From the NCBI RefSeq assembly GCF_000020225.1, contig NC_010655.1, positions 1,290,001-1,322,000 of the forward strand: a stretch of 32,000 nucleotides of DNA, in the 5' to 3' direction. The position numbers and the translations under genes were made by a program. Source of the DNA: Akkermansia muciniphila ATCC BAA-835 (GTDB lineage Bacteria; Verrucomicrobiota; Verrucomicrobiia; Verrucomicrobiales; Akkermansiaceae). Shown piece after piece: positions 2,693-31,346 of the stretch (the first letter of the stretch is position 1; each line of letters starts with the position of its first letter). The notes under the pieces were generated by a model. That model did no database searches and was not told the origin of the DNA. It worked only from the letters and a program-made list of their open reading frames with translations.

Positions 2693-2771
2693 GGGGAACG
2701 CGTCCGTGTTTAGGCGATAATGTGTTAGAGCACCGGATGACTAGTCCATACAGTTTGTGGACGCGTTCCCC
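2693..2771. other. Long stem-loop: perfect 13-bp inverted repeat GGGGAACGCGTCC / GGACGCGTTCCCC with a 53-nt loop
   Basis: Arms at 2693-2705 and 2759-2771. On the minus strand the stem is followed by TCACTTTTTTCC. It could end a leftward transcript starting near 2962 and/or the rightward phosphoesterase gene. Confidence 0.4.
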
Positions 2772-2962
2772 ATAGAATTTGGCCGCGCCTGTTTTCCCTG
2801 GTAGCCGGCGGGACAGTTTTTCCCGGAGCTTTTCAGGGCGCAGCCCCGGCAGCAGCAGGGGCGCGAGGAGGAAAAAAACCTGGAGAAGAAGGACTCCATT
2901 CTGGCGGGTGCGCCGCCGGAGCACTTTCTTTCACCGTTTCTTTCCGAATTGGGGCTGACCAT
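2741..2962 (-). CDS. Candidate small Cys-rich protein (73 aa), or alternatively part of a metal-regulated sRNA
   Basis: ATG at 2962 lies 6 nt after a TAACTT -10-like hexamer that overlaps an operator. The ORF MVSPNSERNGERKCSGGAPARMESFFSRFFSSSRPCCCRGCALKSSGKNCPAGYQGK... has 7 Cys. Codon choice (TCC, TGC, GGC, CCC) resembles the real genes here. No homolog recognised. Confidence 0.3.
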   Translation of the reverse strand: MVSPNSERNGERKCSGGAPARMESFFSRFFSSSRPCCCRGCALKSSGKNCPAGYQGKQARPNSMGNASTNCMD

Positions 2963-2968
2963 GAAGCA

Positions 2969-2997
2969 AAGTTAGTGCAACCTAACTCATATTGCAA
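2969..2997 (-). promoter_or_regulatory. Promoter-operator module TTGCAA-N17-TAACTT containing operator site S1 (TTAGTGCAACCTAA, 2972-2985)
   Basis: Minus strand reads TTGCAATATGAGTTAGGTTGCACTAACTT. Same layout and 17/29 identical positions as the modules at 6277-6305 and 11923-11951. Confidence 0.6.
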
Positions 2998-3070
2998 GAA
3001 AAAAGTTTGTCTCACCTAATATTTTTCAAGAAGAGGTTGACTTGGTCAGAGCCTTGGTTATTGTTTTTTG

Positions 3071-3084
3071 TTAGTTAAACCTAA
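3071..3084. promoter_or_regulatory. Operator site S2 (TTAGTTAAACCTAA) 13 nt upstream of the regulator ATG; overlaps a TAATAA -10-like hexamer (3082-3087)
   Basis: Exact TTAG-N6-CTAA palindrome. A TTGACT hexamer lies at 3037-3042. The position suggests autoregulation. Confidence 0.6.
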
Positions 3085-3096
3085 TAAGCATCAATC

Positions 3097-3504
3097 ATGA
3101 TACATGAAAAATTTTCCACTCCGGAGTTGAGCAACAGCCTGGAGGATTATATTGAGGCCGTCCGCAACATTGAGTTGGAAAAGGGATGCGCCACCGTAGG
3201 GGAAATTGCGGAATCTCTGAACGTGAAAAAACCTTCCGCCTCACTGGCCATGAAGCAGTTGAAGGAACGCGGCCTGGTGGAATACACGCAGTATTCTCCC
3301 ATTGTCCTGACCAGGGAAGGCCGTTATTACGCGGACCGGGTCATTTCCTGCCATACCATGGTGAAGGAGTTCCTCATTACGGTGCTGAAGATGGAGGAAA
3401 AACGCGCCGATGAAGTGGCCTGTTGCATTGAACATATCATGACTCTGGAGGAAATCTCCCGTTTCCAGCTTCTGACGGATCGTTGCAGGGAAAGAGGAGA
3501 ATAA
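3097..3504 (+). CDS. DtxR/MntR-family metal-dependent transcriptional regulator (135 aa, no SH3-like domain)
   Basis: N-terminal LEDYIEAV... and the wHTH segment VGEIAESLNVKKPSASLAMKQLKERGLVEY, followed by a dimerisation/metal domain with H86 and C109-x-x-E112-H113. Collinear with B. subtilis MntR and the first two domains of DtxR. Confidence 0.9.
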   Translation: MIHEKFSTPELSNSLEDYIEAVRNIELEKGCATVGEIAESLNVKKPSASLAMKQLKERGLVEYTQYSPIVLTREGRYYADRVISCHTMVKEFLITVLKMEEKRADEVACCIEHIMTLEEISRFQLLTDRCRERGE

Positions 3505-3540
3505 AATACTCCCGCATGATTTTCCGGGGGGACAGTTCAT

Positions 3541-3568
3541 GAGGGAATGGCTCATCCCTCTCTTTTTT
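3541..3568 (+). terminator. Weak intrinsic terminator candidate after the regulator gene
   Basis: GAGGGA-atggctca-TCCCTC followed by TCTTTTTT. The stem is only 6 bp. It overlaps the stop codon of the convergent ATPase gene. Confidence 0.35.
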
Positions 3569-5663
3569 ACTTCGGAACCCGGACAGGGGGAAGGCATCGG
3601 CGTGTGCTGCGCGCGCTGACGTACACTGTGGAAGCGTTATGGAGGAACGCGGAAAGGTCCGGGGTAATCAGCCCGAACATGCCTAGCAGGATCAGAGAGG
3701 AGTTGAACCCGACGATAAAGCGGTAGTTGCGTTCTATTTTTTCAAGGACGGCACAGCTCAATTCCCTTAAAACAACCAGTTCAGCCAGAGAGCTGGACAA
3801 CAGGGAAATATCCGCCACTTCACGGGCGATATCGGAAGAATCCTTCATGGAGACGGAAACATCTGCACAGGAAAGAGCGGGGGAATCGTTGATGCCGTCT
3901 CCCACCATGCACACTGTTTTGCCGGATTTCTTCAATTGCTGGATAAAGCGGGCCTTATCTTCAGGCAGAACCTGGGAACGGTATTCCGTGATGCCCAACT
4001 GGCGGCTGATGGCGCGGGCTGCGGATTCGCTGTCCCCCGTGAGCATGATGATGGAGGAAATGCCCTGCCGTTTCAGCCGGGCGATCGTCTCTGCGGCTTC
4101 CGGCCTGGGCGGGTCGCTGACGCCGATCATGCCGATTGCTCTGCGGCCTATGGCGAGAAAGATGTTGGATTTTCCTCTGGCGTGATTGCGTATGGTCAGC
4201 CTTTGCTCTTCCGTGAGGGGGATGCGTTCATCTTCAAAGAGAAAATGGTAGCTGCCCACAAGAACCTTTTTTCCATGAAGGCGGGAGGAAATGCCGTGGG
4301 CCACGATGTATTCCACCTCCGCATGTTCTTCTTCATGGTGTAGGCCCTCCTCCAGCGCTTTGCGCACAACGGCCCGCGCCACGCTGTGGGGGAAGTGTTC
4401 TTCCAGGCATGCTGCCGTTTTCAGGATATATTCCCTGCTGCAGTCGCTCAAAGGGATGATCTGCGTTACCTGAGGGCAGGCGGAGGTCAGCGTGCCCGTC
4501 TTGTCAAAAACGATGGTGTCCGTTTTGGCGAACAGCTCCATGAATTTCCCGCCCTTGATCATGATCTTGCGCGCTGCGGCCTCTTTCATGGCGGAGATGA
4601 CGGAGATGGGGGTGGCGAGCTTGATGGCGCAGGAATAATCCACCATCAGCACGGAGAGAGCCTTGGAGATATTCCTGGTGAACAGAAACAGCGCCCCTGC
4701 CGTGAGCAGGGTATAGGGAACGATAGAATCCGCCAGCTTTTCCGCCCGGCTTTGGATGCGCGCTTTCAGTTCCTCCGAATGGTCGATCAGGGCGATGATA
4801 TTGTTAATGCGGGACTGGTCTCCTGCGGCGTCCACCCGGATGACGAGGGAACCCGTTTCCAGCGTGGTTCCGGCAAAGACGACGGACCCTTCCCGTTTGG
4901 AAGCCGCTTCCGATTCCCCCGTCATGGCGGCCTGGTTGACTTCCGCTTCTCCGGACAGCACGGTACCGTCCACAGGGATGACGTTCCCCGCGTCCACGCG
5001 GATTTTCTCCCCCGGGCGGATTTGCTCCATGGGAACCTGGCGCATGCCTCCTTCTTCCACCCGCCAGACGCGGTCTATATTTATGCTCAGGCTGGCCGCA
5101 AGCGCCGCCCGGGTCTTTTTCCGAGTGTAATTTTCCAGCAGGTCTGAAATGGAAAGAAGGAACATGATGGAATTGGCCGTTCCGTAAGCCTTCGTGCCTA
5201 TGGAAACCCCGATGGAGACGGCGTCCAGAACGGCTACGTTGAGCCGTCCGCTTCCCAGGCCGGCCATTCCGCGCCGTAAATAGGAACTGTAATTCCAGAA
5301 TGCTTTGGCCATTCTGAGCGGGGGCGGCAGAAACACCTTGCAAAACAGGAAAGAGGAAGCTTTCCCCGCTATGCGGAGAAAAAAGGACCGGGCCAGTTTC
5401 CTGGCCTCCGCGCGCTCTTCCGGTTCGTGGCTGCGGAGTGTTTCCGGCCTGAGCCTGTCCAGCGTGCGGAAAATGGCCTGGGGGCTGGTTCCTTCATACA
5501 GGATGAACACACCTCCGTTGCAGGGGGTGGCCTTGACGGAGTATACGCCTTTCTGTTTCAGGAGCCTGCATTCGATGCCGTAAGCCTGGTCATGATTGAA
5601 TGCGCAGCGGCCGCTGCGTACACGGAGCCTGCCGGGCGTATGATGGATAACCTGGTAATGCAT
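3567..5663 (-). CDS. P1B-type heavy-metal ATPase with atypical Y-S-C-A transport motif
   Basis: Contains DKTGTLT, TGES, MLTGD and GDGINDSPAL. The helix preceding DKTGT reads MVDYSCAIKLATP where CopA/ZntA have CPC (codons at 4626-4637). The C-terminal FLHNASTVYVSA resembles the HEGxT helix of Co/Fe-type pumps. The N-terminus has an HMA-like fold with no CxxC. I chose the start at MHYQVIHHTPGRLRVR (5663). The track ORF extends to 5729 but would then include a terminator-like hairpin. Confidence 0.88.
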   Translation of the reverse strand: MHYQVIHHTPGRLRVRSGRCAFNHDQAYGIECRLLKQKGVYSVKATPCNGGVFILYEGTSPQAIFRTLDRLRPETLRSHEPEERAEARKLARSFFLRIAGKASSFLFCKVFLPPPLRMAKAFWNYSSYLRRGMAGLGSGRLNVAVLDAVSIGVSIGTKAYGTANSIMFLLSISDLLENYTRKKTRAALAASLSINIDRVWRVEEGGMRQVPMEQIRPGEKIRVDAGNVIPVDGTVLSGEAEVNQAAMTGESEAASKREGSVVFAGTTLETGSLVIRVDAAGDQSRINNIIALIDHSEELKARIQSRAEKLADSIVPYTLLTAGALFLFTRNISKALSVLMVDYSCAIKLATPISVISAMKEAAARKIMIKGGKFMELFAKTDTIVFDKTGTLTSACPQVTQIIPLSDCSREYILKTAACLEEHFPHSVARAVVRKALEEGLHHEEEHAEVEYIVAHGISSRLHGKKVLVGSYHFLFEDERIPLTEEQRLTIRNHARGKSNIFLAIGRRAIGMIGVSDPPRPEAAETIARLKRQGISSIIMLTGDSESAARAISRQLGITEYRSQVLPEDKARFIQQLKKSGKTVCMVGDGINDSPALSCADVSVSMKDSSDIAREVADISLLSSSLAELVVLRELSCAVLEKIERNYRFIVGFNSSLILLGMFGLITPDLSAFLHNASTVYVSARSTRRCLPPVRVPK

Positions 5664-5666
5664 GGA

Positions 5667-5713
5667 TAAGGAAAAAGAAAAGGGGGAAACGCCCTTCTCC
5701 GTGCGTTTCCCCC
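5667..5713 (-). terminator. Strong intrinsic terminator or attenuator between the small upstream ORF and the ATPase start
   Basis: Perfect 11-bp stem GGGGGAAACGC / GCGTTTCCCCC (5682-5692 and 5703-5713) with a 10-nt loop. On the minus strand it is followed by TTTTCTTTTTCC, ending 3 nt before the ATG at 5663. Confidence 0.6.
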
Positions 5714-5786
5714 GTTGGGGGCGGTCCATTCCGCTGGCGGAGAAGGAAACGGGCGCCCCGCTGTTTGGTGATGGACAATGAGATTG

Positions 5787-6017
5787 CTACTGTTCCGGCC
5801 TGCTGTTTTTCGCGGCGGCCTCATGGCACAGGTCTTGGGCTTCTTCCCGGATGTTTGCCAGTTGTTCCATGGCCTTCTGCTGGATGAGCATGGCCTTGGA
5901 AAGGCCCTGGACGGCCAATTTCCTGGCAACGGGACTTTTTACTACTTTCGCTCCGATGGCGGCGGCGATCATTCCTCCGACGAAGCCCCAGAGGCCTTTG
6001 TTGTTCATGTAACTCAT
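5787..6017 (-). CDS. Small membrane-anchored helical protein (76 aa) upstream of the P1B ATPase; PacL/DUF1490-like by architecture
   Basis: From the internal ATG at 6017: MSYMNNKGLWGFVGGMIAAAIGAKVVKSPVARKLAVQGLSKAMLIQQKAMEQLANIREEAQDLCHEAAAKNSRPEQ. It has one N-terminal TM helix, then an amphipathic E/A/Q-rich helix, then a DLCHE motif near the C-terminus. The track ORF starts at a TTG at 6137. Confidence 0.55.
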   Translation of the reverse strand: MSYMNNKGLWGFVGGMIAAAIGAKVVKSPVARKLAVQGLSKAMLIQQKAMEQLANIREEAQDLCHEAAAKNSRPEQ

Positions 6018-6143
6018 GGTAATGTTTTGATTGGGTTCATCCGGCCTTGGCGGCATGCAGCCGCTTCTTTTCCGGAAGGATTGGATTATATCCAATCCAG
6101 CCTGCATTTTTTTAGCGTGCCCCCGTATTCTGGTCAAGATGAA

Positions 6144-6157
6144 TTAGTTGAAACTAA
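6144..6157. promoter_or_regulatory. Operator site S3 (TTAGTTGAAACTAA) 6 nt upstream of a minus-strand TTGACC -35-like hexamer (6137-6132)
   Basis: Exact TTAG-N6-CTAA with extended arms AATTAG/CTAATT. On the minus strand, TTGACC-N17-TAAAAA follows it, heading into the small ORF / ATPase unit. Confidence 0.55.
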
Positions 6158-6276
6158 TTTTTTAGCAGACATGAAAATATTTTTGCGATATTTTTAATAC
6201 GTTGAAAACAAATAAAATATAATGAACCAACATAATGTTGTACTGAGCAGGGCAAGGGCATTGGGAAGAAAAAGTG

Positions 6277-6305
6277 TTGACTGAATAGTTAGTTTAATCT
6301 AACTT
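6277..6305 (+). promoter_or_regulatory. Promoter-operator module TTGACT-N17-TAACTT containing operator site S4 (TTAGTTTAATCTAA, 6289-6302)
   Basis: TTGACTGAATAGTTAGTTTAATCTAACTT. The 14-mer is identical to the site at 12016-12029, with arms AGTTAG/CTAACT. It points toward the porin gene. Confidence 0.65.
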
Positions 6306-6591
6306 TGCCGCGTTGCATGAACTTGACCCATACAGGACTTCACCGTTTCTTCCGCCGGGTCTGCCGGTACAGGAAACTGGCCGGGCTGCTCATCCGGCGT
6401 CCCAGATACCGTCTGCTCTGCGGAGACTGTGGGTTCTGTATGGGGGCATGCGGCAGAGCTGTGAAAGAGCAAGCCCGGGAGAACGGAAGCGGAGCTCTTT
6501 CCCTGTAAAAGGAAAGCGCCCCTCTCCACCTCTGGATCAATCATATAAGTATTATACCACAAACATCCAACGATAAGACTAACCGTTTTCT

Positions 6592-7809
6592 ATGAAGAAG
6601 CATAACATAATAGCAATGGCGTTGACGAGCCTCATGGCGCTTCCTGTAATCGCTCAAGACAGCACCCCTGCTGTTGGTGATATTTTGCAGGGCATCAACA
6701 TGTTCACTCCGGAAGAAGGTGATCCTGCCTGCAAGGTGAAGGCCAATGAGAAATACGGCACCCAATGGGGTGTGGATATGGCCTACGGGCTTTGGAATAC
6801 GGAAAAGGTTTCCGATGTTAAGCGCCATAACAACCTGGCTCTTCTTCATGCCCAGCTTAATCAGCGCCTTATTGAAGACAAGGCCAACGGGGGAACCTGG
6901 TTGCGTGTGGAATTTTCCGGTTCATGGGGGCTGGATCGTGAATCCGCACAGAGCGATACGTTTTTCACTGAAGCCTATGCCACGGCTTCCGGCTTGCATG
7001 CTGACGCGATGGGGCCTCATGAAGGAATATTCCCTGAAGTGGCGCTGATGCAATACTTTGCAGGGAAGCGCGCTTGCCTCATCGCAGGTATGGTGAATCT
7101 CACCAACTACTTTGATGCTGTCAGCATTGCCAATGACTCCTTCTCCTCTTTCACCAATGACGGGTTTGTGAACTCCACTATCCTACCTTTGGTGGACAGC
7201 AATATTGGCGGTATTCTGCAAGTTGAACTCAACCGCAATAATTACATGATGGTTGCCGTTTCCCGCACGGGATGCGATTCCGGATACAATCCTTTTAATT
7301 CCGATTATTGCGATGGTTATGCCGTGGTTGGCGAATACGGCCATATCTTTGCCGACGGCGCTGCGACTCTCCGCATCAATCCGTTCTATACCAGCACGGA
7401 TGTGGACATGGACGACGGGACCGGGGAACGCCGCCGCCAAAATGCCGGGCTTGTCGCGAGCATCGAATATACTCCCTGCGATCCTCTGACCATTTACTCC
7501 CGCGCCGGATTTGCCGCCAAACAATACTTGAGCAACTCCGCTGAATTCTCCGTGGGCGCCAACATTAAGCTCTTCCCTTCCCGTGAAGATGACTTCCTGG
7601 GCATTTCCTACGGTGTGTTCAAGGGGCAGACCCCCTGTGACGGAGAGCGCGCTGAGCATAACCGCGAACAGGTGCTGGAAGTCATGTACAGCTTCCAGGT
7701 GAATGATTATTTCAAAGTTGTTCCTCACTTCCAGTACATCGCGAATCCGGCTTACAGCACTTCCAGCGAAAACATTCTCTGGGGCGTTCAGGCAGTCTTT
7801 TCTTTCTGA
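6592..7809 (+). CDS. Outer-membrane beta-barrel porin, OprB (carbohydrate-selective porin) family-like
   Basis: Signal peptide MKKHNIIAMALTSLMALPVIAQD. Alternating beta-strand pattern, a C-terminal ...VVPHFQYIANPAYS... motif like the OprB xPDxQYIxNPG motif, and a terminal aromatic (VFSF). Confidence 0.75.
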   Translation: MKKHNIIAMALTSLMALPVIAQDSTPAVGDILQGINMFTPEEGDPACKVKANEKYGTQWGVDMAYGLWNTEKVSDVKRHNNLALLHAQLNQRLIEDKANGGTWLRVEFSGSWGLDRESAQSDTFFTEAYATASGLHADAMGPHEGIFPEVALMQYFAGKRACLIAGMVNLTNYFDAVSIANDSFSSFTNDGFVNSTILPLVDSNIGGILQVELNRNNYMMVAVSRTGCDSGYNPFNSDYCDGYAVVGEYGHIFADGAATLRINPFYTSTDVDMDDGTGERRRQNAGLVASIEYTPCDPLTIYSRAGFAAKQYLSNSAEFSVGANIKLFPSREDDFLGISYGVFKGQTPCDGERAEHNREQVLEVMYSFQVNDYFKVVPHFQYIANPAYSTSSENILWGVQAVFSF

Positions 7810-7964
7810 TCAGCTGATCCTGGACATGGCCGCCTTTTCTCTTAAATCAGGCATGGCCGGAGTTCCATGAAAACATAATGACATTAAATCTTCCTTGTCT
7901 GTCTCCATGCAGTGAGCGGAATCCTGCGTGAGAAAGATATAGAAGGGGTCTGCATGACCTGGCG

Positions 7965-8015
7965 GCAACGCCGCATTCTCGATCAGGTAGAGGATGCGGC
8001 GTTGCTTATTTGATT
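7965..8015 (+). terminator. Intrinsic terminator candidate downstream of the porin gene
   Basis: Perfect 12-bp stem GCAACGCCGCAT / ATGCGGCGTTGC (7965-7976 and 7994-8005) with a 17-nt loop, followed by TTATTTGATT. Confidence 0.6.
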
Positions 8016-8355
8016 ACGGAGCCATTTACCCTCCTTTATTGATGCCTGCTGGCGGAGCTTGGACCGGCAATGTATGCCGGGTCATGGAATGGCCTTCAGC
8101 CTTTCCTTATCTACCGTCAAATACTGACTGTTGAAGGTAGGAGGCTTCCCCAAGGCTATTCCGTAGAATTTTTATCCCAGGGAAAAATAAAAGCCGCCTG
8201 AAAATGGGCTTTCCCACCCCTGTCTCCGTTCCCGGAAAAAACGGAAAAGAAGGCTTTTTGCCACGCCGGAAGATGGATGGGAGCCGCAACGTTTCCGGGG
8301 GCCGAAGCGTTTAAAACCATATTGACTTAAACGGGAATTATCTTAAACTGACAGA

Positions 8356-8763
8356 ATGAGTAAGGTTCAATGGGAAATTTCAAATGATGAAGTGACCGAC
8401 CGTGATACTGCTCTGCGCCGCTTGCAGGAAGGAACGACCGGCCACGTGGTGTGCGCCCGCGACGGCGCGTGCCTCCAGTCTTATAAGGAAGCGGATGGCG
8501 TGTACCATTGCGAAATTGTATTCAAGACGGATTCCTGCTGCCCGCCGGTATTCGCCGCCCCGGAAGGGGTGACGGGAAAGGAGCTGGAAATGCTTTACGA
8601 TCGTTTTGCCAATGGGGACGATTTTTCCTTTGTGGAAAAGGAATGGGAACCTCTGATGGCCGTGGAATACCGCCATCGCCACAATGTGATGTGGTTCATC
8701 TTCCTGTTCATTGCGCTGGTAATTGCGGCCATGGCGGCATATCAGCACGGTTGGATTGAGTGA
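8356..8763 (+). CDS. Hypothetical tail-anchored membrane protein (135 aa)
   Basis: ORF with normal codon usage, a soluble Cys-containing N-terminal domain (5 Cys) and a C-terminal TM helix VMWFIFLFIALVIAAMAAY. TTGACT (8322-8327) -N16- TAAACT (8344-8349) ends 6 nt before the ATG. No family recognised. Confidence 0.5.
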   Translation: MSKVQWEISNDEVTDRDTALRRLQEGTTGHVVCARDGACLQSYKEADGVYHCEIVFKTDSCCPPVFAAPEGVTGKELEMLYDRFANGDDFSFVEKEWEPLMAVEYRHRHNVMWFIFLFIALVIAAMAAYQHGWIE

Positions 8764-8802
8764 CAGGGTAGAGGCTGGCTGCGGCAGGCGCCGTAGCAGA
8801 AA

Positions 8803-8835
8803 AACCTGCAAACCGTAGAAAATGGTTTGCAGGTT
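8803..8835. terminator. Perfect 12-bp hairpin between convergent genes (end of the feo operon)
   Basis: AACCTGCAAACC-gtagaaaat-GGTTTGCAGGTT. The minus-strand tail is TTTCTGC, a short T-tract. No T-tract follows on the plus strand. Confidence 0.5.
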
Positions 8836-8861
8836 CTGGATGGGATAACCGGGGCCGGGAT

Positions 8862-9047
8862 TTAATCCTGTTTTTCGTGGTCGTGATGGTGGCCGCCGCA
8901 GCAATTTCCGCCGCCACCGCAACAGCCGTCGCTGTCGTTGCCGCAACATCCGCAGTTGCCGCAGCACTTGCCGCGCTTACTGAAAATTTTGTATAACGCG
9001 TAGGCTAGGGCCAGGAAAAGAAGGGTGGCGATGATATATGTTCCCAT
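8862..9047 (-). CDS. FeoB-associated Cys-rich membrane peptide (61 aa)
   Basis: N-terminal TM helix MGTYIIATLLFLALAYALYKIF followed by KCCGNCGCCGNDSDGCCGGGGNCCGGHHHDHEKQD (9 Cys, 4 His). It sits directly downstream of feoB, as expected for the FeoB-associated Cys-rich family. Confidence 0.8.
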   Translation of the reverse strand: MGTYIIATLLFLALAYALYKIFSKRGKCCGNCGCCGNDSDGCCGGGGNCCGGHHHDHEKQD

Positions 9048-9081
9048 ATTGGTCAGTAGAGTTAAGGAATTGGTTTAGGAG

Positions 9082-11343
9082 TTATTTGGAGGCTGTATAA
9101 GGTTTCTTTGCCACTAGGTAAACGAACCCCAGCAGGAGCAATAGGGCAATGCCCTGCCCGATGCCGAAGGAAGCTTCCGCATAAAGCCATGCTCCCAGCT
9201 GGTAAATCAGGAAGGCCAGGCAGTACGCCAGGGCGCACATGTAGCCGATGGCGAAGAAGGTCCATTTGGCGCTGTTCATTTCCCTTCTGATAGCGCCCAT
9301 GGCCGCGAAGCAGGGGGCGCAGAGAAGATTGAAAATCATGAAGGAGAAAGCGCTCAGGAAGGTGAAGGCTCCCGCTTGGACCAGGCGGTCCCCGGTTTCC
9401 CTGATTTCCGCATCTTCATCTTCCTCTTCTTCCGCTTCAGCAGCGGATTCTCCGGAACCTTCCTCCAGGGATGCCTGGAGCTCCCGGCCGGCGGGGGACA
9501 TTTCCTGCGTTTCGGGGGAGTCCTCCGTTTTTTCCGCTTCATCTTCCCCGGAACTGCCGTCCGCATACAGGACGCCGAAGGTGCCTACCACGTTTTCCTT
9601 GGCAATCAATCCGGTAATGGTAGCCATGGTGGGTTTCCATTCACCCCAGCCCAGAGGCTGGAAGACAGGCGCGGCCACATTGCCGATGGAGGCCAGCATG
9701 CTGTCATTCTGCTCTACGGAATCCACCTTCCAGTTATAGCTGGAGAGGAACCAGATCAGGGCGCTGGACACAAAGATGACGGTCCCGGCTTTTTGCACGA
9801 AAGCCTTGCAGCGGTCCCATGCATGAATGATGACGTTCTTCCAGGCCGGGATGTGGTAAATGGGAAGTTCCATGACGAAGGGAGTGGGGTCCCCGGCGAA
9901 CATGGCAGTCTTTTTCAGAATAAGGCCGGAAAGGATGATGGCGCCCACCCCGATGAAATAGGCTCCCGGAGCCACCCAGGAATTTTCCGGGAAGAAGGCT
10001 CCGGCAATCAGGGCAATGATGGGAGTTTTGGCCCCGCAGGGGATGAACGTGGTGGTCATGATAGTCATGCGCCTGTCCTTTTCGTTCTCAATGGTGCGGG
10101 TCGCCATGACTCCAGGAACGCCGCACCCCATGGAAACGAGCATGGGAATAAAGGATTTCCCGGAAAGGCCGAATTTGCGGAAAATGCGGTCCATGATGAA
10201 CGCTACGCGGGCCATGTAGCCGCAATCCTCCAATATGCCCAGGCACAGGAACAGAACCGCCATTTGCGGGAGGAAGCCCAGAACGGCTCCCACGCCGGCA
10301 ATCACGCCGTCCTGGATCAGGCTTTCCAGCCATGGGGCGCAGCCGGCGTTTTCCAGCAGGCTTCCTACCCATTCCGGAACCCATTCCCCGAAGAAAGTAT
10401 CATTGGCCCAGTCTGTGCCCCATGCGCCTATCGTCTGAATGGAGATGTAATATACAGCCCACATGACGACGGCAAAAATGGGGAGGCCCAGCCAGCGGTT
10501 GGTGATGATGCGATCAATCCTGTCGCTGCCCGTCAGGCTGCCGGGGCTGGCTTTAACGACGGCGTCTTTGATGATGCGGGAAATGGAATTATAGCGTTCA
10601 TTGGTGATAATGGATTCACTGTCGTCATCCATTTCCCGTTCCATGGTTTCAATAATCCCGTTGATGCGGGATTGTTCCTCGGGATTGAGCGCGAGCTGGT
10701 CCGCGACTTTCTGGTCTCTTTCGAAAACTTTAACGGCAAACCATTTTTTCTGCTGATCCAGGCATTTTCCGGTGATGATTTCCCCAATTTCTCCGATGGC
10801 TTTTTCCAGATGGTCCGGAAAGTGGACGGCCTGCGGGGTCCGGGCGTCGTCCGACGCAGTCGTCGTTACTACGGCGTCTATCAGTTCACGGATGCCGGTC
10901 CCCTTGAGAGCGCTGATTTCCAGCACCTGGCAACCGAGGTTGCGTGCAAGTTTTTCCGTGTCGATCCTGTCGCCGCGCTTCCGGACAATGTCCATCATGT
11001 TCAGCGCTATAATGACGGGAACGCCCAGTTCGCAAAGCTGGGTGGTGAGGTAAAGATTGCGTTCCAGGTTGCTGCCGTCAACCAGGTTCAGGATGAGGGA
11101 GGGATGGTCCGTGACTAGGTAATTCCGGCTGACGACTTCCTCCAGGGTATAGGGGGAAAGGGAATAAATGCCCGGAAGGTCTTCAATGATGATATTTTTA
11201 TGGCCTTTCAGGCGGCCTTCCTTTTTTTCCACGGTGACGCCGGGCCAGTTCCCGACGTATTGGTTGGCGCCTGTCAGGGCGTTAAAGAGCGTGGTTTTCC
11301 CGCAGTTGGGGTTGCCCGCCAGGGCGATGGTAATGTTGCTCAT
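9082..11343 (-). CDS. feoB: Ferrous iron (divalent metal) transporter FeoB
   Basis: From the internal ATG at 11343: MSNITIALAGNPNCGKTTLFNALTG (G1), DLPGIYSL (G3) and a NMMD-type G4, then the polytopic membrane domain. The track ORF start at 11625 is an upstream extension. The protein carries a ~60-aa acidic insertion (9376-9561). Confidence 0.95.
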   Translation of the reverse strand: MSNITIALAGNPNCGKTTLFNALTGANQYVGNWPGVTVEKKEGRLKGHKNIIIEDLPGIYSLSPYTLEEVVSRNYLVTDHPSLILNLVDGSNLERNLYLTTQLCELGVPVIIALNMMDIVRKRGDRIDTEKLARNLGCQVLEISALKGTGIRELIDAVVTTTASDDARTPQAVHFPDHLEKAIGEIGEIITGKCLDQQKKWFAVKVFERDQKVADQLALNPEEQSRINGIIETMEREMDDDSESIITNERYNSISRIIKDAVVKASPGSLTGSDRIDRIITNRWLGLPIFAVVMWAVYYISIQTIGAWGTDWANDTFFGEWVPEWVGSLLENAGCAPWLESLIQDGVIAGVGAVLGFLPQMAVLFLCLGILEDCGYMARVAFIMDRIFRKFGLSGKSFIPMLVSMGCGVPGVMATRTIENEKDRRMTIMTTTFIPCGAKTPIIALIAGAFFPENSWVAPGAYFIGVGAIILSGLILKKTAMFAGDPTPFVMELPIYHIPAWKNVIIHAWDRCKAFVQKAGTVIFVSSALIWFLSSYNWKVDSVEQNDSMLASIGNVAAPVFQPLGWGEWKPTMATITGLIAKENVVGTFGVLYADGSSGEDEAEKTEDSPETQEMSPAGRELQASLEEGSGESAAEAEEEEDEDAEIRETGDRLVQAGAFTFLSAFSFMIFNLLCAPCFAAMGAIRREMNSAKWTFFAIGYMCALAYCLAFLIYQLGAWLYAEASFGIGQGIALLLLLGFVYLVAKKPYTASK

Positions 11344-11419
11344 GAATGGTTTCCTTGTCTTGATATATGGGTGCCCGTCTTGCTGTAAAGTCAGGAAACG
11401 TGCGGTAATAGAGGCGGAA

Positions 11420-11650
11420 TCAATGGATATGGATGTTCTCCGCTTCCGATTTGCGAATGGAGAGTTCGTACCCGCGGACAGTAACTTCAATGGGATCTCC
11501 CAGAGGGGCGACTTTGCGGATGAATATCTGCGTTCCCTTGGTAACCCCCATGTCCATGATGCGTCTTCTGACCGGGCCTTCCCCCGCCAGTTTGCCGACG
11601 GTGACGGTTTCCCCGATGAGGGCATCTCTCAATGTACGATGTTTGGTCAT
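11420..11650 (-). CDS. feoA: FeoA family protein (second copy, 76 aa)
   Basis: From the ATG at 11650: MTKHRTLRDALIGETVTVGKLAGEGPVRRRIMDMGVTKGTQIFIRKVAPLGDPIEVTVRGYELSIRKSEAENI. This is a FeoA SH3-like pattern. Confidence 0.85.
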   Translation of the reverse strand: MTKHRTLRDALIGETVTVGKLAGEGPVRRRIMDMGVTKGTQIFIRKVAPLGDPIEVTVRGYELSIRKSEAENIHIH

Positions 11651-11681
11651 AGAATAATGGTTGGTTGTTGGATGGAATAAC

Positions 11682-11894
11682 TCAGGCAACGAATATTTTG
11701 CTGGCAAGCGCCTTGCTGAGCGCAATCCTGGAGCCTTTGACGTTGATAATGAAATTACCGCCGTTTTCGGAAACGATGGAGACCGTGCTCCCGGCAACGA
11801 AGCCCAGGCTTTCTAGAAAACGCCGGGTTTCATCCTTGCCATGGATTTTGTTGACTTGGCGAATATCGCCGATGTTGAGCATGGAGAGTGGCAT
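11682..11894 (-). CDS. feoA: FeoA family protein (first copy, 70 aa)
   Basis: From the ATG at 11894: MPLSMLNIGDIRQVNKIHGKDETRRFLESLGFVAGSTVSIVSENGGNFIINVKGSRIALSKALASKIFV. Confidence 0.85.
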   Translation of the reverse strand: MPLSMLNIGDIRQVNKIHGKDETRRFLESLGFVAGSTVSIVSENGGNFIINVKGSRIALSKALASKIFVA

Positions 11895-11922
11895 GGTGCG
11901 TGTATGAATCAAATCCGGAAAG

Positions 11923-11951
11923 AAGTTAGTTTTATCAAACTGATAAGTCAA
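11923..11951 (-). promoter_or_regulatory. feo promoter-operator module TTGACT-N17-TAACTT with degenerate operator S7 (plus-strand TTAGTTTTATCAAA, 11926-11939)
   Basis: Minus strand reads TTGACTTATCAGTTTGATAAAACTAACTT. One half-site is exact (CTAAC) and the other has one mismatch (GTTTG). The module lies about 29 nt upstream of the feoA ATG. Confidence 0.55.
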
Positions 11952-12015
11952 TGATATTATTAGGATATATTTTTTCAATCAATGTCAAATGCGTTTAATA
12001 TAAATTGTTTGCGTA

Positions 12016-12029
12016 TTAGTTTAATCTAA
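12016..12029. promoter_or_regulatory. Operator site S5 (TTAGTTTAATCTAA), distal site upstream of the feo operon
   Basis: Exact TTAG-N6-CTAA, identical 14-mer to 6289-6302, located 122 nt upstream of the feoA ATG. Confidence 0.6.
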
Positions 12030-12103
12030 GTGTGGCCAGCGGGGAAGAGGCGGGGAATGGAAGTTTCCCGGCAGTGTCTGCCGTAGGAACTGGAAGGGAA
12101 ATG

Positions 12104-12141
12104 CAAAAAAGCCGCGCCAATGAATGTTCATTGGCGCGGCT
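12104..12141 (-). terminator. Intrinsic terminator after the cytochrome c peroxidase gene
   Basis: Perfect 15-bp stem AGCCGCGCCAATGAA / TTCATTGGCGCGGCT with a 2-nt loop. The minus-strand tail is TTTTTGCAT. Confidence 0.8.
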
Positions 12142-12164
12142 GGAAAAAGAGCTTTTCTTCAGAT

Positions 12165-13544
12165 TCAGGAGGCAGGGCAAACTTCGCCCTGGACGGGTTT
12201 GCCGTTGTATTCTCCGGTAAGCGTCTTCAGGAAAGCCACCAGAAGTCTCACTTCCTTCTTGTCCAGTTTATCGTAACCGAGCTGGTAATGGTACATTTTC
12301 GTAATGGCTTCCTCCAGAGTCTGTGCGGAGGCGTCATGCATGTACGGCCAGGTGAGTTCCACATTGCGGAGGGTCGGAACACGGAAGCGGTGCCTGTCCG
12401 ATTCCTTTTTGGAGAAATTCATCAGGCCGTTATCGTCGTTGGTCTTGGCGCGTCCGGCAAAGAAATCGCCTTTGAGGTCGGCGTATTCAAAGGACTGGCC
12501 TCCCATGGCGGGACCGGTGTGGCAGGTCTGGCAACCAAGCTTCAGGAAAAGCTTGTAACCTTTTTTGGCGTTCTCGCTGATGGCGTTTTCATCCCCTTTC
12601 AGGTAGCGGTCAAACGGGCTGTTCGGCGTGATAAGAGTTTTTTCATATTCCGCGATGGCATTCGTGATGGTCTCTCCGGTGAATCCCTGGGGGTAAACCT
12701 TTTTGAATTCTGCGGCAAAAGCGGTGTCCTGGTCCAGTTTGGCAGCGATCTTCTTCCAGTCATCCGGATGTTCGTACCCCATTTCCACCGGATTCAGGGG
12801 CGGTCCGCCGGCCTGTTCCTGGAGGTTGGCTGCGCGTCCGTCCCAAAATTGCTTGGCATGGAAAGCGGCATTGAAAACGGTGGGGGCATTGATGCCGCCT
12901 TTCTGGCCGCGGACTCCGGTGGAAGTGGGCAGGTTGTCCGTCCCGGCTTTTTCCAGGGAATGGCAGGAAGCGCAGGAAACGGTATTGTCCGTGGAAAGGC
13001 GCACGTCATGAAAAAGCTTGTAGCCCAGGGCCACTTTGGCCGGATCCGTGGGGAGGGCGTCCGGAATGGGGGCAAGAGGGGAAAGGGCGTATTCCTCTCC
13101 TACCATATCGCCGAAAATTTTCAGGCGCTCATCCTTGATCCACTGGAGCATGGCGTTTTTCTCCCGGAGAGTGAGCGTGCTGCCCCAGTGCACCATGGTG
13201 TAGGAAGTGGGGGGCATGGAATTGATTTGAAGCACATGTTCCAGCTTGGAAAGGGTGACGGCAGTGGGAGGTTCTTCCATATTGTAGCTGCGCTGCCCGT
13301 CCCTGATATGGCGCGCCAGCAGGCCTCCGGAAAGAGTATTGACCAGTTCGGAAATGTGAGTGCCGGGCTTGTGGCAGTCCGCACATTTGGAATTCATGGT
13401 CTGTGCGGTAATTTCCGCCGCCTGGGCGGACGTCAGTGGCTTGACATTCTGGTTCGGCAGGAACAGGGGGGCGACAGCCGCCGTCACGATGACCGTGCCG
13501 CCCAGAATGGCTCCTGCCTTGATGAAGGAACATGTTTTGCTCAT
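12165..13544 (-). CDS. Tri-haem cytochrome c peroxidase (bacterial CCP/MauG family with an extra N-terminal haem domain; YhjA-like)
   Basis: Three CxxCH motifs (CADCH, CASCH, CQTCH), an N-terminal TM/signal anchor, and CCP-family blocks such as FHDVRLSTDNTVSCASCH, FWDGRA and VPTLRNVELTWPYMHD. Confidence 0.88.
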   Translation of the reverse strand: MSKTCSFIKAGAILGGTVIVTAAVAPLFLPNQNVKPLTSAQAAEITAQTMNSKCADCHKPGTHISELVNTLSGGLLARHIRDGQRSYNMEEPPTAVTLSKLEHVLQINSMPPTSYTMVHWGSTLTLREKNAMLQWIKDERLKIFGDMVGEEYALSPLAPIPDALPTDPAKVALGYKLFHDVRLSTDNTVSCASCHSLEKAGTDNLPTSTGVRGQKGGINAPTVFNAAFHAKQFWDGRAANLQEQAGGPPLNPVEMGYEHPDDWKKIAAKLDQDTAFAAEFKKVYPQGFTGETITNAIAEYEKTLITPNSPFDRYLKGDENAISENAKKGYKLFLKLGCQTCHTGPAMGGQSFEYADLKGDFFAGRAKTNDDNGLMNFSKKESDRHRFRVPTLRNVELTWPYMHDASAQTLEEAITKMYHYQLGYDKLDKKEVRLLVAFLKTLTGEYNGKPVQGEVCPAS

Positions 13545-13610
13545 GAGATTCTCAATGACGTGGAATTGCCCGGATGGTAAAAGGGGAAGGATAAAAAATC
13601 AAGATTTATT

Positions 13611-14615
13611 CTAAAGTTCGCCGGCCTTTCTCAGGTCTTCGTTAATGGCTTCCAGAACATCCGCTTCCGGGGTGAAATTGGCGGCATGGTAGGAGCTGCG
13701 GACCAACGGCCCGGATGCCACGTGCCTGAAGCCTTTGGAGCGCGCAACTTCCTCATACCGGGCGAAATCATCCGGATGGACGTATTTGACCACCGGAAGA
13801 TGGTTGCGGGAGGGGCGCAGGTATTGCCCCAACGTCAGGACCGTGACGCCGTGCTCCAGCAAATCGTCCATGGAGCGGAAAAGCTCTTCTTCCGTTTCCC
13901 CCAGGCCCAGCATGATGCCGCTCTTTGTAGACACTTTGCCGTCCACGCACTCCAGAGCCATCCGGAGAACGCGCAGGGACCGCCGGTACTGGGCGCGGAA
14001 GCGGACAATGGGCGTGAGGCGTTCCACCGTCTCCAGATTGTGTCCGAAAATATGCGGACGGGCCGCCATGAGCGTCTGGATGGAGGAGGGCTTCTCATTC
14101 AAGTCCGAGGCAAGCACTTCAATGATCGTGGAAGGGCTGGCTTTTCTGACGGCCCTAATTACCTGGGCGAAATGCGCGGCGGCGCCGTCCGGCAAATCAT
14201 CCCGGGTGACCATGGTAATCACGGCGTGGCGCAGCTTCATGTGCACGACGGCTTCCGCCACGTGCTGCGGTTCTTCAGGATCCAGCGGGCCGGGCTTGGC
14301 CGTGCGGGTGGCGCAGAATCCGCAGGCGCGCGTGCACCGTTCTCCGGCAATCATGAACGTGGCCGTACCCTGGTTCCAACATTCATAACGGTTGGGGCAG
14401 TGTGCTTCTTCACAGACGGTGAAGAGGTTTTTGCCTTCCACAAGCTGCTTGACGTCCCAGAATTCCCGGCCGTTGGGCAGACGAACCTTGATCCACGACG
14501 GTTTGCGTTCCGTTCCTTCCGCAGTCTCATTGTCGTTCCGGCGTTCCATAGTCCCGCTAGCTTGCCGTGACTCTGCTGCTTTGGCAAATGCAAAGTGTTT
14601 TATTCCGGACTTCAT
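13611..14615 (-). CDS. lipA: Lipoyl synthase
   Basis: CEEAHCPNRYECW plus the radical-SAM motif CTRACGFCA. The ATGA overlap with the tadA stop supports the start at 14615; an internal ATG at 14549 is also possible. Confidence 0.93.
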   Translation of the reverse strand: MKSGIKHFAFAKAAESRQASGTMERRNDNETAEGTERKPSWIKVRLPNGREFWDVKQLVEGKNLFTVCEEAHCPNRYECWNQGTATFMIAGERCTRACGFCATRTAKPGPLDPEEPQHVAEAVVHMKLRHAVITMVTRDDLPDGAAAHFAQVIRAVRKASPSTIIEVLASDLNEKPSSIQTLMAARPHIFGHNLETVERLTPIVRFRAQYRRSLRVLRMALECVDGKVSTKSGIMLGLGETEEELFRSMDDLLEHGVTVLTLGQYLRPSRNHLPVVKYVHPDDFARYEEVARSKGFRHVASGPLVRSSYHAANFTPEADVLEAINEDLRKAGEL

Positions 14616-15157
14616 TCCCCGTTTTCATCCGGAGGGGAAGAAAGACGCGCAGACAATTTTTTCCGTTCTTTTGCCGCCAGACGCGCCGCACGGAAAAACT
14701 CCTGGAGATGAAGCAGGCACTCGTCTCCCAGTACGCCGGGACGCACCTCGCACTTATGGTTCAGGGGCGGATTGGAATCCAGCAGATTGATCCAGCCCCC
14801 CGCAGCCCCGGTTTTTGCATCCGGGCAGCCGAAAACGACGCGGTCCGGACGGCAGTGGACGATAGCTCCTGCGCACATGGGGCACGGCTCCTTGGTGACA
14901 TACAGGGTGCAGCCTTCCAGCCTCCAGTCGCCCAAAGCCTCCTGTGCCGCCGTCAGGGCAATCATCTCCGCATGGGCCGTAGCATCCTTGAGCGTCTCCA
15001 CCTGGTTCCAGCCCCGGCCGATCACGCGGCCATCCTTCACCACAATGGCTCCAACAGGCACTTCCCCTTTCACGAGGGCCTTTCTGGATTCTTTCATGGC
15101 TTGGCGCATGAACCATTCGTCCGAACCGGGCATTTCCATCATTACGGAGGTTATCAT
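14612..15157 (-). CDS. tadA: tRNA adenosine(34) deaminase
   Basis: CDA-fold motifs HAEMIAL and PCPMCAGAI, with a short basic C-terminal extension. Confidence 0.9.
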   Translation of the reverse strand: MITSVMMEMPGSDEWFMRQAMKESRKALVKGEVPVGAIVVKDGRVIGRGWNQVETLKDATAHAEMIALTAAQEALGDWRLEGCTLYVTKEPCPMCAGAIVHCRPDRVVFGCPDAKTGAAGGWINLLDSNPPLNHKCEVRPGVLGDECLLHLQEFFRAARLAAKERKKLSARLSSPPDENGE

Positions 15158-15301
15158 GGACCGGGCGGCGCGGTTCTGGCAAGCTCTTTCTGGAAGATTC
15201 TTATTGTGTTTTATACGGTAAGTGCGCCATGCCGCGGAAAGGGGTGGGGATGAATGCGTTTTTACGTTGATTCCGGAGAATGGGTGGCATAAGTATGGAC
15301 T

Positions 15302-16300
15302 ATGAGCTTTTCAGAACCCTGTGCCTTGGCCGTTGATTTCGGCGGCACGAGCATCAAAATGGGCGTAACGGCGGGGGATCGTATTCTGGCGACGGCCGAC
15401 CGCATCCCTACTGCCATGTTCGAAAGCCCGCAGGCAATCATTGATGCCATGATTGCGTCCGCCCGCACCCTGCGCGGACAATTCCCCTCCGCCTGTGTGA
15501 TGGGCATGGGAATGCCGGGATGGTGTGATTACCAGCGGGGAGTGCTTTACCAGCTTACCAATGTGAGGGTCTGGGATAGGGAAATTCCGGTGAAAGAGAT
15601 GATGGAGCAGGCCCTGGGCCTCCCCGTCGTGCTGGATAATGACGCCAACTGCATGGCTTATGCGGAATGGAAGCTTGGCGCCGGGCGCGGCATGTCCAGC
15701 CTGGTGTGCCTGACGATGGGAACGGGGATAGGCGGGGGAATCGTGGTGCATGACCGCATGCTGCGGGGAAGGCGGCTTTCCGCTGCGGAACTGGGCCAGA
15801 CCAGCATTCATTACCAGGGGAAAACGGGACCGTTCGGCAGCCGGGGAGCCATTGAGGAATACATCGGCAACAACGAACTGGCGGCGGAGGCGGTTAAACG
15901 GTATGCCGGGGCGGGAATCATCAAGACGGTGGATGAATGCACGCCCAGGCATCTGGACGAGGCTGCCCGGTCCGGATGTCCTATAGCCCTTCAATTATGG
16001 GAAGATACGGCGGAAATGCTGGGCTGCCTGATCATGAACCTGATGTATACGCTGGTGCCGGACGCCTTCATCATCGGGGGCGGTGTGGCCAAGGCAGGGG
16101 ATTTGTTGATGAAGCCGCTGCTGGAGAACCTCAGGAAACAGTTGTTTCCTCTCCTGATGGAGGATTTGAAAATTCTGCCTGCCAGATTTGGAGCGGAGGC
16201 GGGGTTGCTGGGAGCGGGAGCCATGGCGATGGATGAATTCATGGGGCTGGGGATTTTGGAACGGTTTAAGAACCAGAAATCAACGCAGACTTTTTGTTAG
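15302..16300 (+). CDS. ROK-family sugar kinase (glucokinase / N-acetylhexosamine kinase-like)
   Basis: AVDFGGTSIKMG (phosphate-1), LDNDANCMAYAE and GTGIGGGIV. The usual ROK Cys-rich zinc motif is absent (ELGQTSIHYQGKTGPFGSRGAIEEY). Confidence 0.82.
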   Translation: MSFSEPCALAVDFGGTSIKMGVTAGDRILATADRIPTAMFESPQAIIDAMIASARTLRGQFPSACVMGMGMPGWCDYQRGVLYQLTNVRVWDREIPVKEMMEQALGLPVVLDNDANCMAYAEWKLGAGRGMSSLVCLTMGTGIGGGIVVHDRMLRGRRLSAAELGQTSIHYQGKTGPFGSRGAIEEYIGNNELAAEAVKRYAGAGIIKTVDECTPRHLDEAARSGCPIALQLWEDTAEMLGCLIMNLMYTLVPDAFIIGGGVAKAGDLLMKPLLENLRKQLFPLLMEDLKILPARFGAEAGLLGAGAMAMDEFMGLGILERFKNQKSTQTFC

Positions 16301-16310
16301 TTTGGGCTAA
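16297..16310. promoter_or_regulatory. Operator site S6 (TTAGTTTGGGCTAA) overlapping a TAATAT -10 hexamer (16308-16313), 49 nt upstream of the CPC-type ATPase
   Basis: Exact TTAG-N6-CTAA. Its left half overlaps the TAG stop codon of the ROK kinase gene. Confidence 0.55.
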
Positions 16311-16358
16311 TATAGGGCTTGCCATGCCGGAGAGGCAGGCGTACAAGCGGAACAGGTC

Positions 16359-27995: not shown

Positions 27996-28189
27996 AGCAC
28001 AATTCAATTCCCTGATTAGTTACACCAAAAACCGAACTGTGGCTAGCAAAAATCTCTTGTTTCTTTCCATGTAGCGTGTGTGGAGCATGACACGGCTCCG
28101 CCCGACGGTTCTGCCCGGGCGGTCAAGAAAAAAACATGCGGCATGGCTGCGGGCTTGACCTGGCAGAGGTGTTTCCACATGCTCGGCCC

Positions 28190-31070: not shown

Positions 31071-31346
31071 GCAGAATAAGACGGTATCCGCCCGGGTGGT
31101 GTTCGAGTCATGACCCGATTGGCGCCAGGGGGGGGCCGGAGGGGGTGGCTCCGGAAATTCCGGGGCGGTTTTGTGCCTCCTAACGGACGGGTGGCGGGCC
31201 GGCAGGGAATGGGCGAATGGCATAAGAATAGCCGGAGCGGGGAAACGGCACGGTCAGAAGAACTCCGGACGACAAGGAAACGCGCAAGGTTGCCCCGTGT
31301 CCGGATGCATGATTGACAAGCCGGAAAAGCGGGGCATGCTGTTGAT

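Follow-up and report, generated by a model that had tools for sequence, protein, structure and literature searches.

Conserved TTAG-N6-CTAA boxes as predicted operators of a DtxR/MntR-family regulator in an iron-related gene cluster of Akkermansia muciniphila

The actinobacterial iron repressors IdeR and DtxR recognize a 19-bp box composed of two overlapping TTAG-N6-CTAA units, each bound by one protein dimer (PMC8464063). Here we describe a set of TTAG-N6-CTAA boxes in a 32-kb stretch of the Akkermansia muciniphila ATCC BAA-835 genome (NC_010655.1, positions 1,290,001 to 1,322,000, hereafter the window), which includes the gene for a 135-amino-acid (aa) DtxR/MntR-family regulator, Amuc_1082. 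The boxes are probably the operators of this adjacent regulator, whose binding to them we predict. In the IdeR/DtxR box TTAGGTTAGSCTAACCTAA, positions 1–14 and 6–19 each read TTAG-N6-CTAA, which bears out TTAG and CTAA as DtxR/IdeR half-sites, as a first-pass annotation of the window had stated; its further statement that the spacing here differs from that of DtxR/IdeR is wrong. A half site with the repeats of one dimer binds IdeR in vitro with an apparent KD of 78 nM (PMC8464063). Because each IdeR/DtxR dimer reads TTAG-N6-CTAA, the Akkermansia boxes can be read as single-dimer operators of the DtxR family. They contain repeats 1 and 3, with N6 between TTAG and CTAA, and no box has a TTAG/CTAA pair offset by 5 bp, as the full 19-bp four-repeat palindrome would. 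The N6 geometry of the Akkermansia box also holds for the MntR box of E. coli (..ATAG-N6-CTAT..).

The window comes from the strain (MucT) for which iron responses have been published (PMC12552655, Nat Commun 2025). There, Amuc_1082–1096 are induced in an iron-limiting polyphenol medium, including Amuc_1082–1084, termed Iron_cluster_1, and Amuc_1086 is placed in the Feo cluster. The feo genes, like Amuc_1082, react to dipyridyl and to iron, and Amuc_1082 is named a hub transcription factor from co-expression. The same study matches five in-silico promoter motifs to Fur, PvdS, Zur and RpoN, and calls for direct tests (PMC12552655). Organism, regulator, gene cluster and induction by iron limitation are thus common to the published “DtxR” network and to the system described here, but the network is built on co-expression and its main text reports no TTAG-N6-CTAA or other DtxR-type operator. 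The earlier supposition that such regulation had not been described for this organism therefore holds for the operator, as far as that main text goes, and not for Amuc_1082, which was already proposed as a regulator in 2025. Our literature search found no further paper mentioning these locus tags in this context.

Conserved boxes in the promoters of the cluster

The window contains six exact TTAG-N6-CTAA matches by pattern count (boxes 1, 3, 4, 5, 7 and 8; Table 1), all of them where the first-pass annotation had placed them. In dinucleotide-preserving shuffles of the whole window the mean is 0.09 and the maximum 2, against the six observed; the rough first-pass estimate had been 0.2–0.3 chance matches. 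Because the boxes sit in intergenic DNA, which is AT-richer than the remainder, the shuffle was also run on the intergenic set alone (3,048 nt, 9.5% of the window). Here 0.027 boxes are expected against five observed, and at least five occurred in 0 of 5000 shuffles. The two comparisons together rule out a chance origin. The sixth exact box overlaps the TAG stop codon of a ROK gene and none lies wholly within coding sequence in the 32-kb window, again as claimed.

Allowing one mismatch adds four sites, at 11926, 3006, 28016 and 31170. The first (Box 6, TTAGTTTTATCAAA on the forward strand, TTAG-N6-CAAA) had been listed in the first-pass annotation; the second (Box 2, TTTG-N6-CTAA) had not. Among the seven copies listed there, the base after TTAG is correctly given as T in all and the next as T in six. 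The match at 31170 lies in GC-rich coding DNA and is regarded as chance.

Promoter elements were read from the sequence together with the alignments described below. One module recurs at three promoters, those of a 63-aa open reading frame (ORF) and the porin, of feoA, and of a 73-aa ORF. It consists of a -35 hexamer, 6 nt, the 14-bp box and CTT, so that the -10 hexamer TAACTT is made up of the last three box bases plus CTT. Ahead of the 63-aa ORF it runs from 6277 to 6305 on the plus strand, with TTGACT at 6277, then 6 nt, Box 5 and CTT, and its TAACTT at 6300–6305 shares three bases with the box. The feoA module, on the minus strand, comprises a -35 TTGACT from 11951 to 11946, Box 6, and a -10 TAACTT from 11928 to 11923. 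Both sites originally assigned to feoA are present, but the one that overlaps the promoter is the one-mismatch Box 6, and the exact Box 7, whose letters are identical to those of Box 5, is only an upstream auxiliary. In the three modules, as well as at Box 3 and Box 8, the boxes are in repressor positions.

Table 1. Boxes, promoter and genes of the cluster, in window coordinates
Feature	Position	Strand	Sequence or motifs	Context
73-aa Cys-rich ORF	2741..2962	-	conserved C terminus LGNASTNCMD	
Box 1	2972..2985		TTAGTGCAACCTAA	between -35 TTGCAA (2992-2997) and -10 TAACTT (2974 to 2969, minus) of the 73-aa ORF
Box 2	3006..3019		TTTGTCTCACCTAA	weak left half-site; between two divergent promoters
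Regulator promoter	3037..3064	+	TTGACT, 16 nt, TATTGT	both hexamers kept in the alignment
Box 3	3071..3084		TTAGTTAAACCTAA	begins 6 nt past the regulator -10, over the inferred start site
DtxR/MntR-family metalloregulator, 135 aa	3097..3504	+	PF01325 + PF02742	ACD04908.1, Amuc_1082
ATPase1, P1B-6 (FezB-like) P-type ATPase, 720 aa	3567..5729	-	DYSCA 364, HNAST 697, RLRVR 34	
FezA-like small membrane protein, 76 aa	5787..6017	-	hydrophobic N terminus, GxxxG	first gene of the fezAB-like unit
Box 4	6144..6157		TTAGTTGAAACTAA	6 bp ahead of a putative leftward -35
Box 5	6289..6302		TTAGTTTAATCTAA	within the promoter-operator module 6277..6305 (+)
63-aa Arg/Cys-rich ORF	6317..6508	+	MNLTHTGLHRFF...CGDCGFCMGAC	first gene past Box 5
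OprB-family porin	6592..7809	+	PF04966	
Conserved 135-aa protein	8356..8763	+	C-terminal membrane helix	mid-cluster
FeoB-associated Cys-rich peptide	9047-8862	-		after feoB
feoB	~11430-9082	-		
feoA, second	11651-11420	-		
feoA	11895-11682	-		
Box 6	11926..11939	-	TTTGATAAAACTAA on the minus strand	feoA module 11923..11951 (-)
Box 7	12016..12029		TTAGTTTAATCTAA	exact; ~90 bp upstream of the feoA promoter-proximal Box 6
Box 8	16297..16310		TTAGTTTGGGCTAA	overlaps -10-like TAATAT (16308-16313) and the ROK stop codon; ahead of the second ATPase
ATPase2, P1B-2 (ZntA/CadA-like), 641 aa	16359..18284	+		ACD04921.1; Amuc_1095 by count

Conservation was assessed in orthologous loci from other Akkermansia lineages (12 loci, ∼236 kb, referred to by L numbers), which encode regulators 89, 88, 87, 83, 83, 83, 75 and 72% identical to that of the window and, for ATPase2, proteins with 85, 79 and 75% identity. 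Every syntenic genome (seven to nine besides the window for most boxes) has exact boxes at the matching positions, and in the alignments TTAG and CTAA are invariant amid freely diverging six-base spacers and intergenic flanks; the conservation check proposed with the initial prediction thus came out in its favor. Box 1 has invariant half-sites and a variable spacer in seven genomes, Box 2 is kept as TTTG-N6-CTAA with seven different spacers in seven genomes, and the CAAA half-site of Box 6 is invariant in nine, its spacer again being variable. Inter-box distances are kept at 34 bp, 63–65 bp, 145–148 bp and 87–90 bp, the last separating Box 7 from Box 6 in every genome. The regulator's own promoter carries a box in every genome examined. 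Across the ∼236 kb, exact boxes are confined to these intergenic regulatory regions, apart from three boxes in L005, in the equivalent porin-regulator spacer, and one in L016, ahead of the arsR-type operon of the ATPase2 ortholog. The 44 distinct boxes yield a symmetric extended consensus, a-R-TTAG-t-T-w-w-A-a-CTAA-Y-t.

The boxes also travel with their genes. The regulator and porin genes of L005 lie elsewhere in the genome as divergent neighbors, and the three boxes between them have the same promoter geometry, with the layout of Box 3 at the regulator promoter and a Box 5-type module ahead of the porin. L003 lacks the 73-aa ORF and likewise boxes 1 and 2.

The weakest case is Box 8, which is kept in three lineages, with different spacers in L014 and L015. 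In both of these (5927–5964 in each) the box forms the apex of a palindrome with 16-bp arms, GCAAGCCTTATGTTAG-N6-CTAACATAAGGCTTGC, with folding energies of -29 and -23 kcal/mol (z -7.5 and -4.2, respectively); the palindrome is degenerate in the window (16285–16322, z -0.4). The palindrome may form an RNA hairpin where the ROK gene ends, or be an extended binding site for a protein. L016 is more distantly related, and there (4198–4300) an ArsR/SmtB-type regulator gene and typical palindromes, TATATAAACATGTGTTTATATA, stand ahead of the ATPase2 ortholog; a TTAG-N6-CTAA box with a TAATAT -10 lies just upstream, which suggests dual control in this lineage.

Two other origins for the boxes were considered and rejected. 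A mobile or repeat element does not fit, as only the eight core bases and short flanks are common to the boxes and the spacers differ. A structured RNA is ruled out by the lack of any Rfam match in the window at gathering thresholds and by the porin- and feoA-promoter boxes, which fold no better than shuffles.

The one-mismatch site at 28016–28029 (TTAGTTACACCAAA) is intergenic and has the weak-half-site form seen in boxes 2 and 6. Two genes follow it, one for a 238-aa secreted protein with no functional assignment (27279–27995, minus strand), whose start is 20 nt away, and one for an M42 aminopeptidase at a distance of 107 nt.

The regulator Amuc_1082 and its metal

The A. muciniphila proteins ACD04908.1 and ACD04921.1 (UniProt B2UR36_AKKM8) match the regulator and the second ATPase exactly, which marks the window as type-strain sequence. 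Amuc_1082 comprises a winged-helix DNA-binding domain (PF01325, E 3.6e-13; 49.9 bits, cut-off 26) and a metal-binding/dimerization domain (PF02742, E 1.1e-10). Lying beside the boxes, this DtxR-family protein is their obvious predicted binder. It has the C/E-x-x-E-H ligand motif and a His79 equivalent, and its predicted ligand positions are D17, E20, H86, C109, E112 and H113, the last four of which are invariant in the orthologs.

The comparison with DtxR used a reference sequence entered by hand, and the residue equivalences and identity that follow are to be read with that in mind. H86, C109, E112 and H113 align to DtxR H79, C102, E105 and H106, Asp17 falls at the Met10 position and Asp105 at the His98 position. 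Pro39 of the recognition helix is kept as Pro46, and Gln43 is replaced by Leu50. In DtxR, Gln43 reads the base pair after TTAG, and the swap matches the shift from TTAGG to TTAGT. The Akkermansia system shares with IdeR/DtxR the TTAG/CTAA quarter-sites, the dimer geometry of repeats 1 and 3 and, as predicted, an autoregulated neighborhood and metal-dependent repression of iron uptake by promoter occlusion. It differs in having one dimer unit instead of two overlapping ones, T in place of G after TTAG, and a regulator only 25% identical to DtxR. The strict DtxR/IdeR features are missing from the 135-residue protein, which stops before any SH3-like third domain and has Asp for Met10 of the primary site, and its scores stay below the curated DtxR equivalog cut-offs.

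On sequence alone, either iron or manganese could be the signal. We regard it as improbable, though the best of the alternatives, that the same regulator and boxes answer to Mn2+, as an MntR-type manganese regulon, or to a mixture of Fe and Mn. The closest solved relative of Amuc_1082 is B. subtilis MntR (E 2e-11, against ∼1e-6 for IdeR/DtxR), the top NCBIfam models are MntR, and one source labels the protein Mn dependent. Like MntR of B. subtilis and E. coli, it has two domains and a similar length (135 versus 142 aa), and Asp17 and Glu20 align with the N-terminal ligands Asp8 and Glu11 of B. subtilis MntR. However, its scores fall far short of the MntR equivalog cut-offs NF003025 and NF008273 (69.8 versus 138 and 68 versus 153), and Cys109, at the DtxR Cys102 position, stands where MntR has Glu99. 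Its apparent targets are Feo, the porin and a FezAB-like unit, not the manganese importers MntH or MntABC, and the published response is to iron chelation and add-back (PMC12552655), although dipyridyl and proanthocyanidins bind other metals too. Fe2+ is the most likely signal, since the published induction fits simple repression at all units, both ATPases included.

The regulator is apparently a two-domain member of the family in a subgroup of its own, confined to Akkermansiaceae. A scan of genome contigs recovered only four further loci, all from Akkermansia. Two more distant homologs were uninformative: one of 45% identity from JGI data, which lies inside an operon on short contigs, and one of 37% from Erysipelotrichaceae, with just one distant box.

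The FezAB-like unit and the other genes of the cluster

Genes were mapped with Pfam and NCBIfam scans. The regulator, the YSCA ATPase, the porin, the feoA-feoA-feoB operon, the Cys-rich peptide and the CPC ATPase were all correctly assigned in the first-pass annotation, and the gene order agrees with published tags (Amuc_1082 for the regulator, Amuc_1088–1090 for feoB-feoA-feoA). What does not stand is part of the summary given there, that import, outer-membrane entry and two exporters make up one regulon: a conserved shared system is borne out, but the YSCA pump is FezB-like and should not be counted as an exporter.

FezB proteins of the P1B-6 class are marked by D[Y/F]SCA, HNxxT and RxRxR (bioRxiv 10.1101/2020.01.10.902569), and ATPase1 carries all three. 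The 76-aa protein encoded beside it contains GLWGFVGGMIAAAIGAKVV, with the FezA-like GxxxG as GFVGG at residue 11, and matches DUF6110 weakly, below the Pfam cut-off. Because ATPase1 has FezB signatures and adjoins a FezA-like gene, the 3567–6017 unit is best read, from its gene content, as a ferrosome-type iron-storage module rather than a detoxifying exporter. The known fezAB clusters, from D. magneticus, S. putrefaciens, R. palustris and C. difficile, likewise pair a P1B-6 ATPase with a small GxxxG membrane protein, and fez clusters often adjoin feoAB and Fur or DtxR genes (bioRxiv 10.1101/2020.01.10.902569). In contrast to those clusters, the Akkermansia unit has only two fez-like genes and would be under the control of a DtxR-family protein. 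L002, L003, L007 and L008 lack the unit. Our literature search found no paper describing ferrosomes in Akkermansia.

A candidate leftward promoter for fezA-fezB lies next to Box 4, with a putative -35 TTGACC from 6137 to 6132 and a putative -10 from 6114 to 6109. Three roles can be considered for Box 4: an additional operator of the porin promoter, the operator of ATPase1, or a site of activation. In the last case the logic of the system would be mixed, the metal-loaded regulator repressing feo, the porin and its own gene and activating the fezAB-like unit. For such dual behavior there is precedent: IdeR activates bacterioferritin genes and MntR activates efflux pumps. The activation of storage genes by IdeR is reported in PMC8464063, and the -35 hexamer downstream of Box 4 (TTGACC/TTGATC) is kept only in the four genomes with fezAB. 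We nevertheless judge this arrangement unlikely, and somewhat more so than a manganese signal. Iron_cluster_1 is induced, not repressed, in iron-limiting medium (PMC12552655), C. difficile fezAB is repressed through Fur and induced at low iron (PMC12574912), and Box 4 is retained in three genomes without the ATPase1 unit; moreover, the fezA promoter is itself only an inferred assignment. An imperfect palindrome at 6081–6101, GGATTGGATTATATCCAATCC, occupies the fezA upstream or leader region and is partly kept in L001 and L006.

ATPase2 belongs with the P1B-2 (Zn/Cd/Pb) pumps. It scores 472.9 against a cut-off of 313.5 for TIGR01512 and has a Cys/His-rich N terminus, CPC at 298 in the transmembrane helix preceding the phosphorylation domain, and GVK within IVLILGVKILV and ADVG at 619, which supply the Lys and Asp-x-Gly of the last two helices; the ZntA equivalog cut-off is not reached (415 versus 1240). 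It would plausibly guard against the entry of Zn, Cd or Co, or mismetallation by them, when Feo and the porin are derepressed. Between the feo genes and ATPase2 lie genes for a di-heme cytochrome c peroxidase, lipoyl synthase, a deaminase and a ROK kinase.

Two small Cys-rich ORFs lie directly behind boxes. The 73-aa ORF has a conserved PCCCRGC core and a C-terminal LGNAS(T/K)NCMD that is invariant in seven genomes, its inferred transcript is nearly leaderless, and it has no Pfam or NCBIfam match; its product may bind metal or serve as a precursor peptide. The 63-aa ORF (MNLTHTGLHRFFRRVCRYRKLAGLLIRRPRYRLLCGDCGFCMGAC...), also without a family match in the Pfam and NCBIfam scans, lies between operator and porin and starts ∼5 nt after the inferred transcription start. 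Its N-terminal 46 residues are kept in eight genomes and its C terminus is variable, and it combines RxRxR with a CxxCxxCxxxC-like run from which one Cys is lost in L003.

The conserved mid-cluster protein of 135 aa (region 8322–8763) has its own strongly conserved promoter, TTGACTT-16-TAAACT. This promoter carries no box, so the gene may lie outside the regulon, although the published Feo cluster takes in Amuc_1086 (PMC12552655). An identical sequence, TTTGGTTTGACTAA, occurs between the porin and this ORF in L001 (15232), L003 (12556), L006 (15232), L007 (12960) and L008 (13003). It adjoins a 65–69-aa minus-strand ORF in genomes with the longer porin allele (436–439 aa), and is absent from the window and from L002, both of which have the 405-aa porin.

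A proposed iron-responsive regulon

The data support one conserved regulatory system in which boxes stand ahead of the regulator, the 73-aa ORF, the small-ORF/ATPase unit, the porin, feoAAB and ATPase2. In the mechanism that we propose, one metal-loaded dimer of Amuc_1082 would bind each 14-bp box. At the promoters of the 63-aa ORF/porin, feoA, the 73-aa ORF and the ZntA-like pump, the box fills the spacer between -35 and -10 and lends its CTAA half-site to the -10 (TAACTT or TAATAT). Upstream of the regulator gene it covers the inferred transcription start, which would give autoregulation. Since the boxes overlay promoters or the start site, bound repressor would exclude RNA polymerase when the metal, most likely Fe2+, is plentiful, and iron shortage would switch on all units, the regulator gene included. 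The upstream boxes at 12016 and 3006, and perhaps that at 6144, would be auxiliary sites.

Several points weigh against this interpretation. The promoter hexamers were assigned by their match to the consensus and not from mapped transcription starts, and the box scan covered just ∼236 kb of largely orthologous DNA. Box 4 is not at a repressor position and is kept in genomes without fezAB, and Box 8, within a longer palindrome in two species, could have another function. The evidence on the metal is mixed: among solved structures and curated models MntRs come closest, and the protein has Asp at the Met10 position, as in MntR, but Cys at the Cys102 position, as in DtxR. The block ATAATATCATTGACTT at feoA, together with the published Fur-like motifs (PMC12552655), leaves room for co-regulation by Fur.

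This block, 11946–11961 (AAGTCAATGATATTAT, of which ATAATATCATTGACTT is the reverse complement), is invariant in nine genomes and reaches upstream of the feoA -35. It is AT rich and loosely resembles a Fur box, and may be the site of a second regulator or an UP element.

That the boxes are read by some protein encoded elsewhere, such as Fur (Amuc_0486), or are merely -10 elements, with the DtxR-like gene a bystander, is very improbable: four boxes share bases with a -10 hexamer, Fur-like motifs occur in these promoters (PMC12552655) and the conserved AT-rich block flanks the feoA -35, but the left TTAG is as invariant as the right half-site yet outside the -10, boxes 2, 3, 4 and 7 lie outside any -35/-10 spacer, the dyad symmetry and N6 fit DtxR-family dimers and not the 19-bp Fur box, and the boxes accompany the regulator gene to a different context in L005.

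Operators for Amuc_1082 thus remain the preferred interpretation of the boxes. More tentatively, and with the balance tilting against the full picture, the cluster may be a compact iron-starvation regulon run from single-dimer DtxR-type boxes, coupling entry through the porin, Feo import, a FezAB ferrosome-type storage organelle and a ZntA-like pump that clears Zn, Cd or Co, together with the 63- and 73-aa Cys-rich micro-proteins. With a textbook metal repressor at its center, the gain is specific rather than conceptual. The operator would be the missing DNA target for a recently proposed iron regulator; being defined, it makes the co-expression proposal for Amuc_1082 directly testable, and the boxes set a DtxR-type regulon apart from Fur-controlled genes. 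Much work has gone into A. muciniphila as a gut commensal and potential probiotic, and its iron economy is only starting to be described. If the proposal is true, its FezAB unit would represent a ferrosome-type organelle not yet described in this species or its phylum. Ferrosome use by beneficial gut bacteria is listed as an open question in a recent review (PMC12574912), and one such bacterium may, as the FezAB-like unit suggests, share the iron-storage organelle that aids C. difficile against nutritional immunity.

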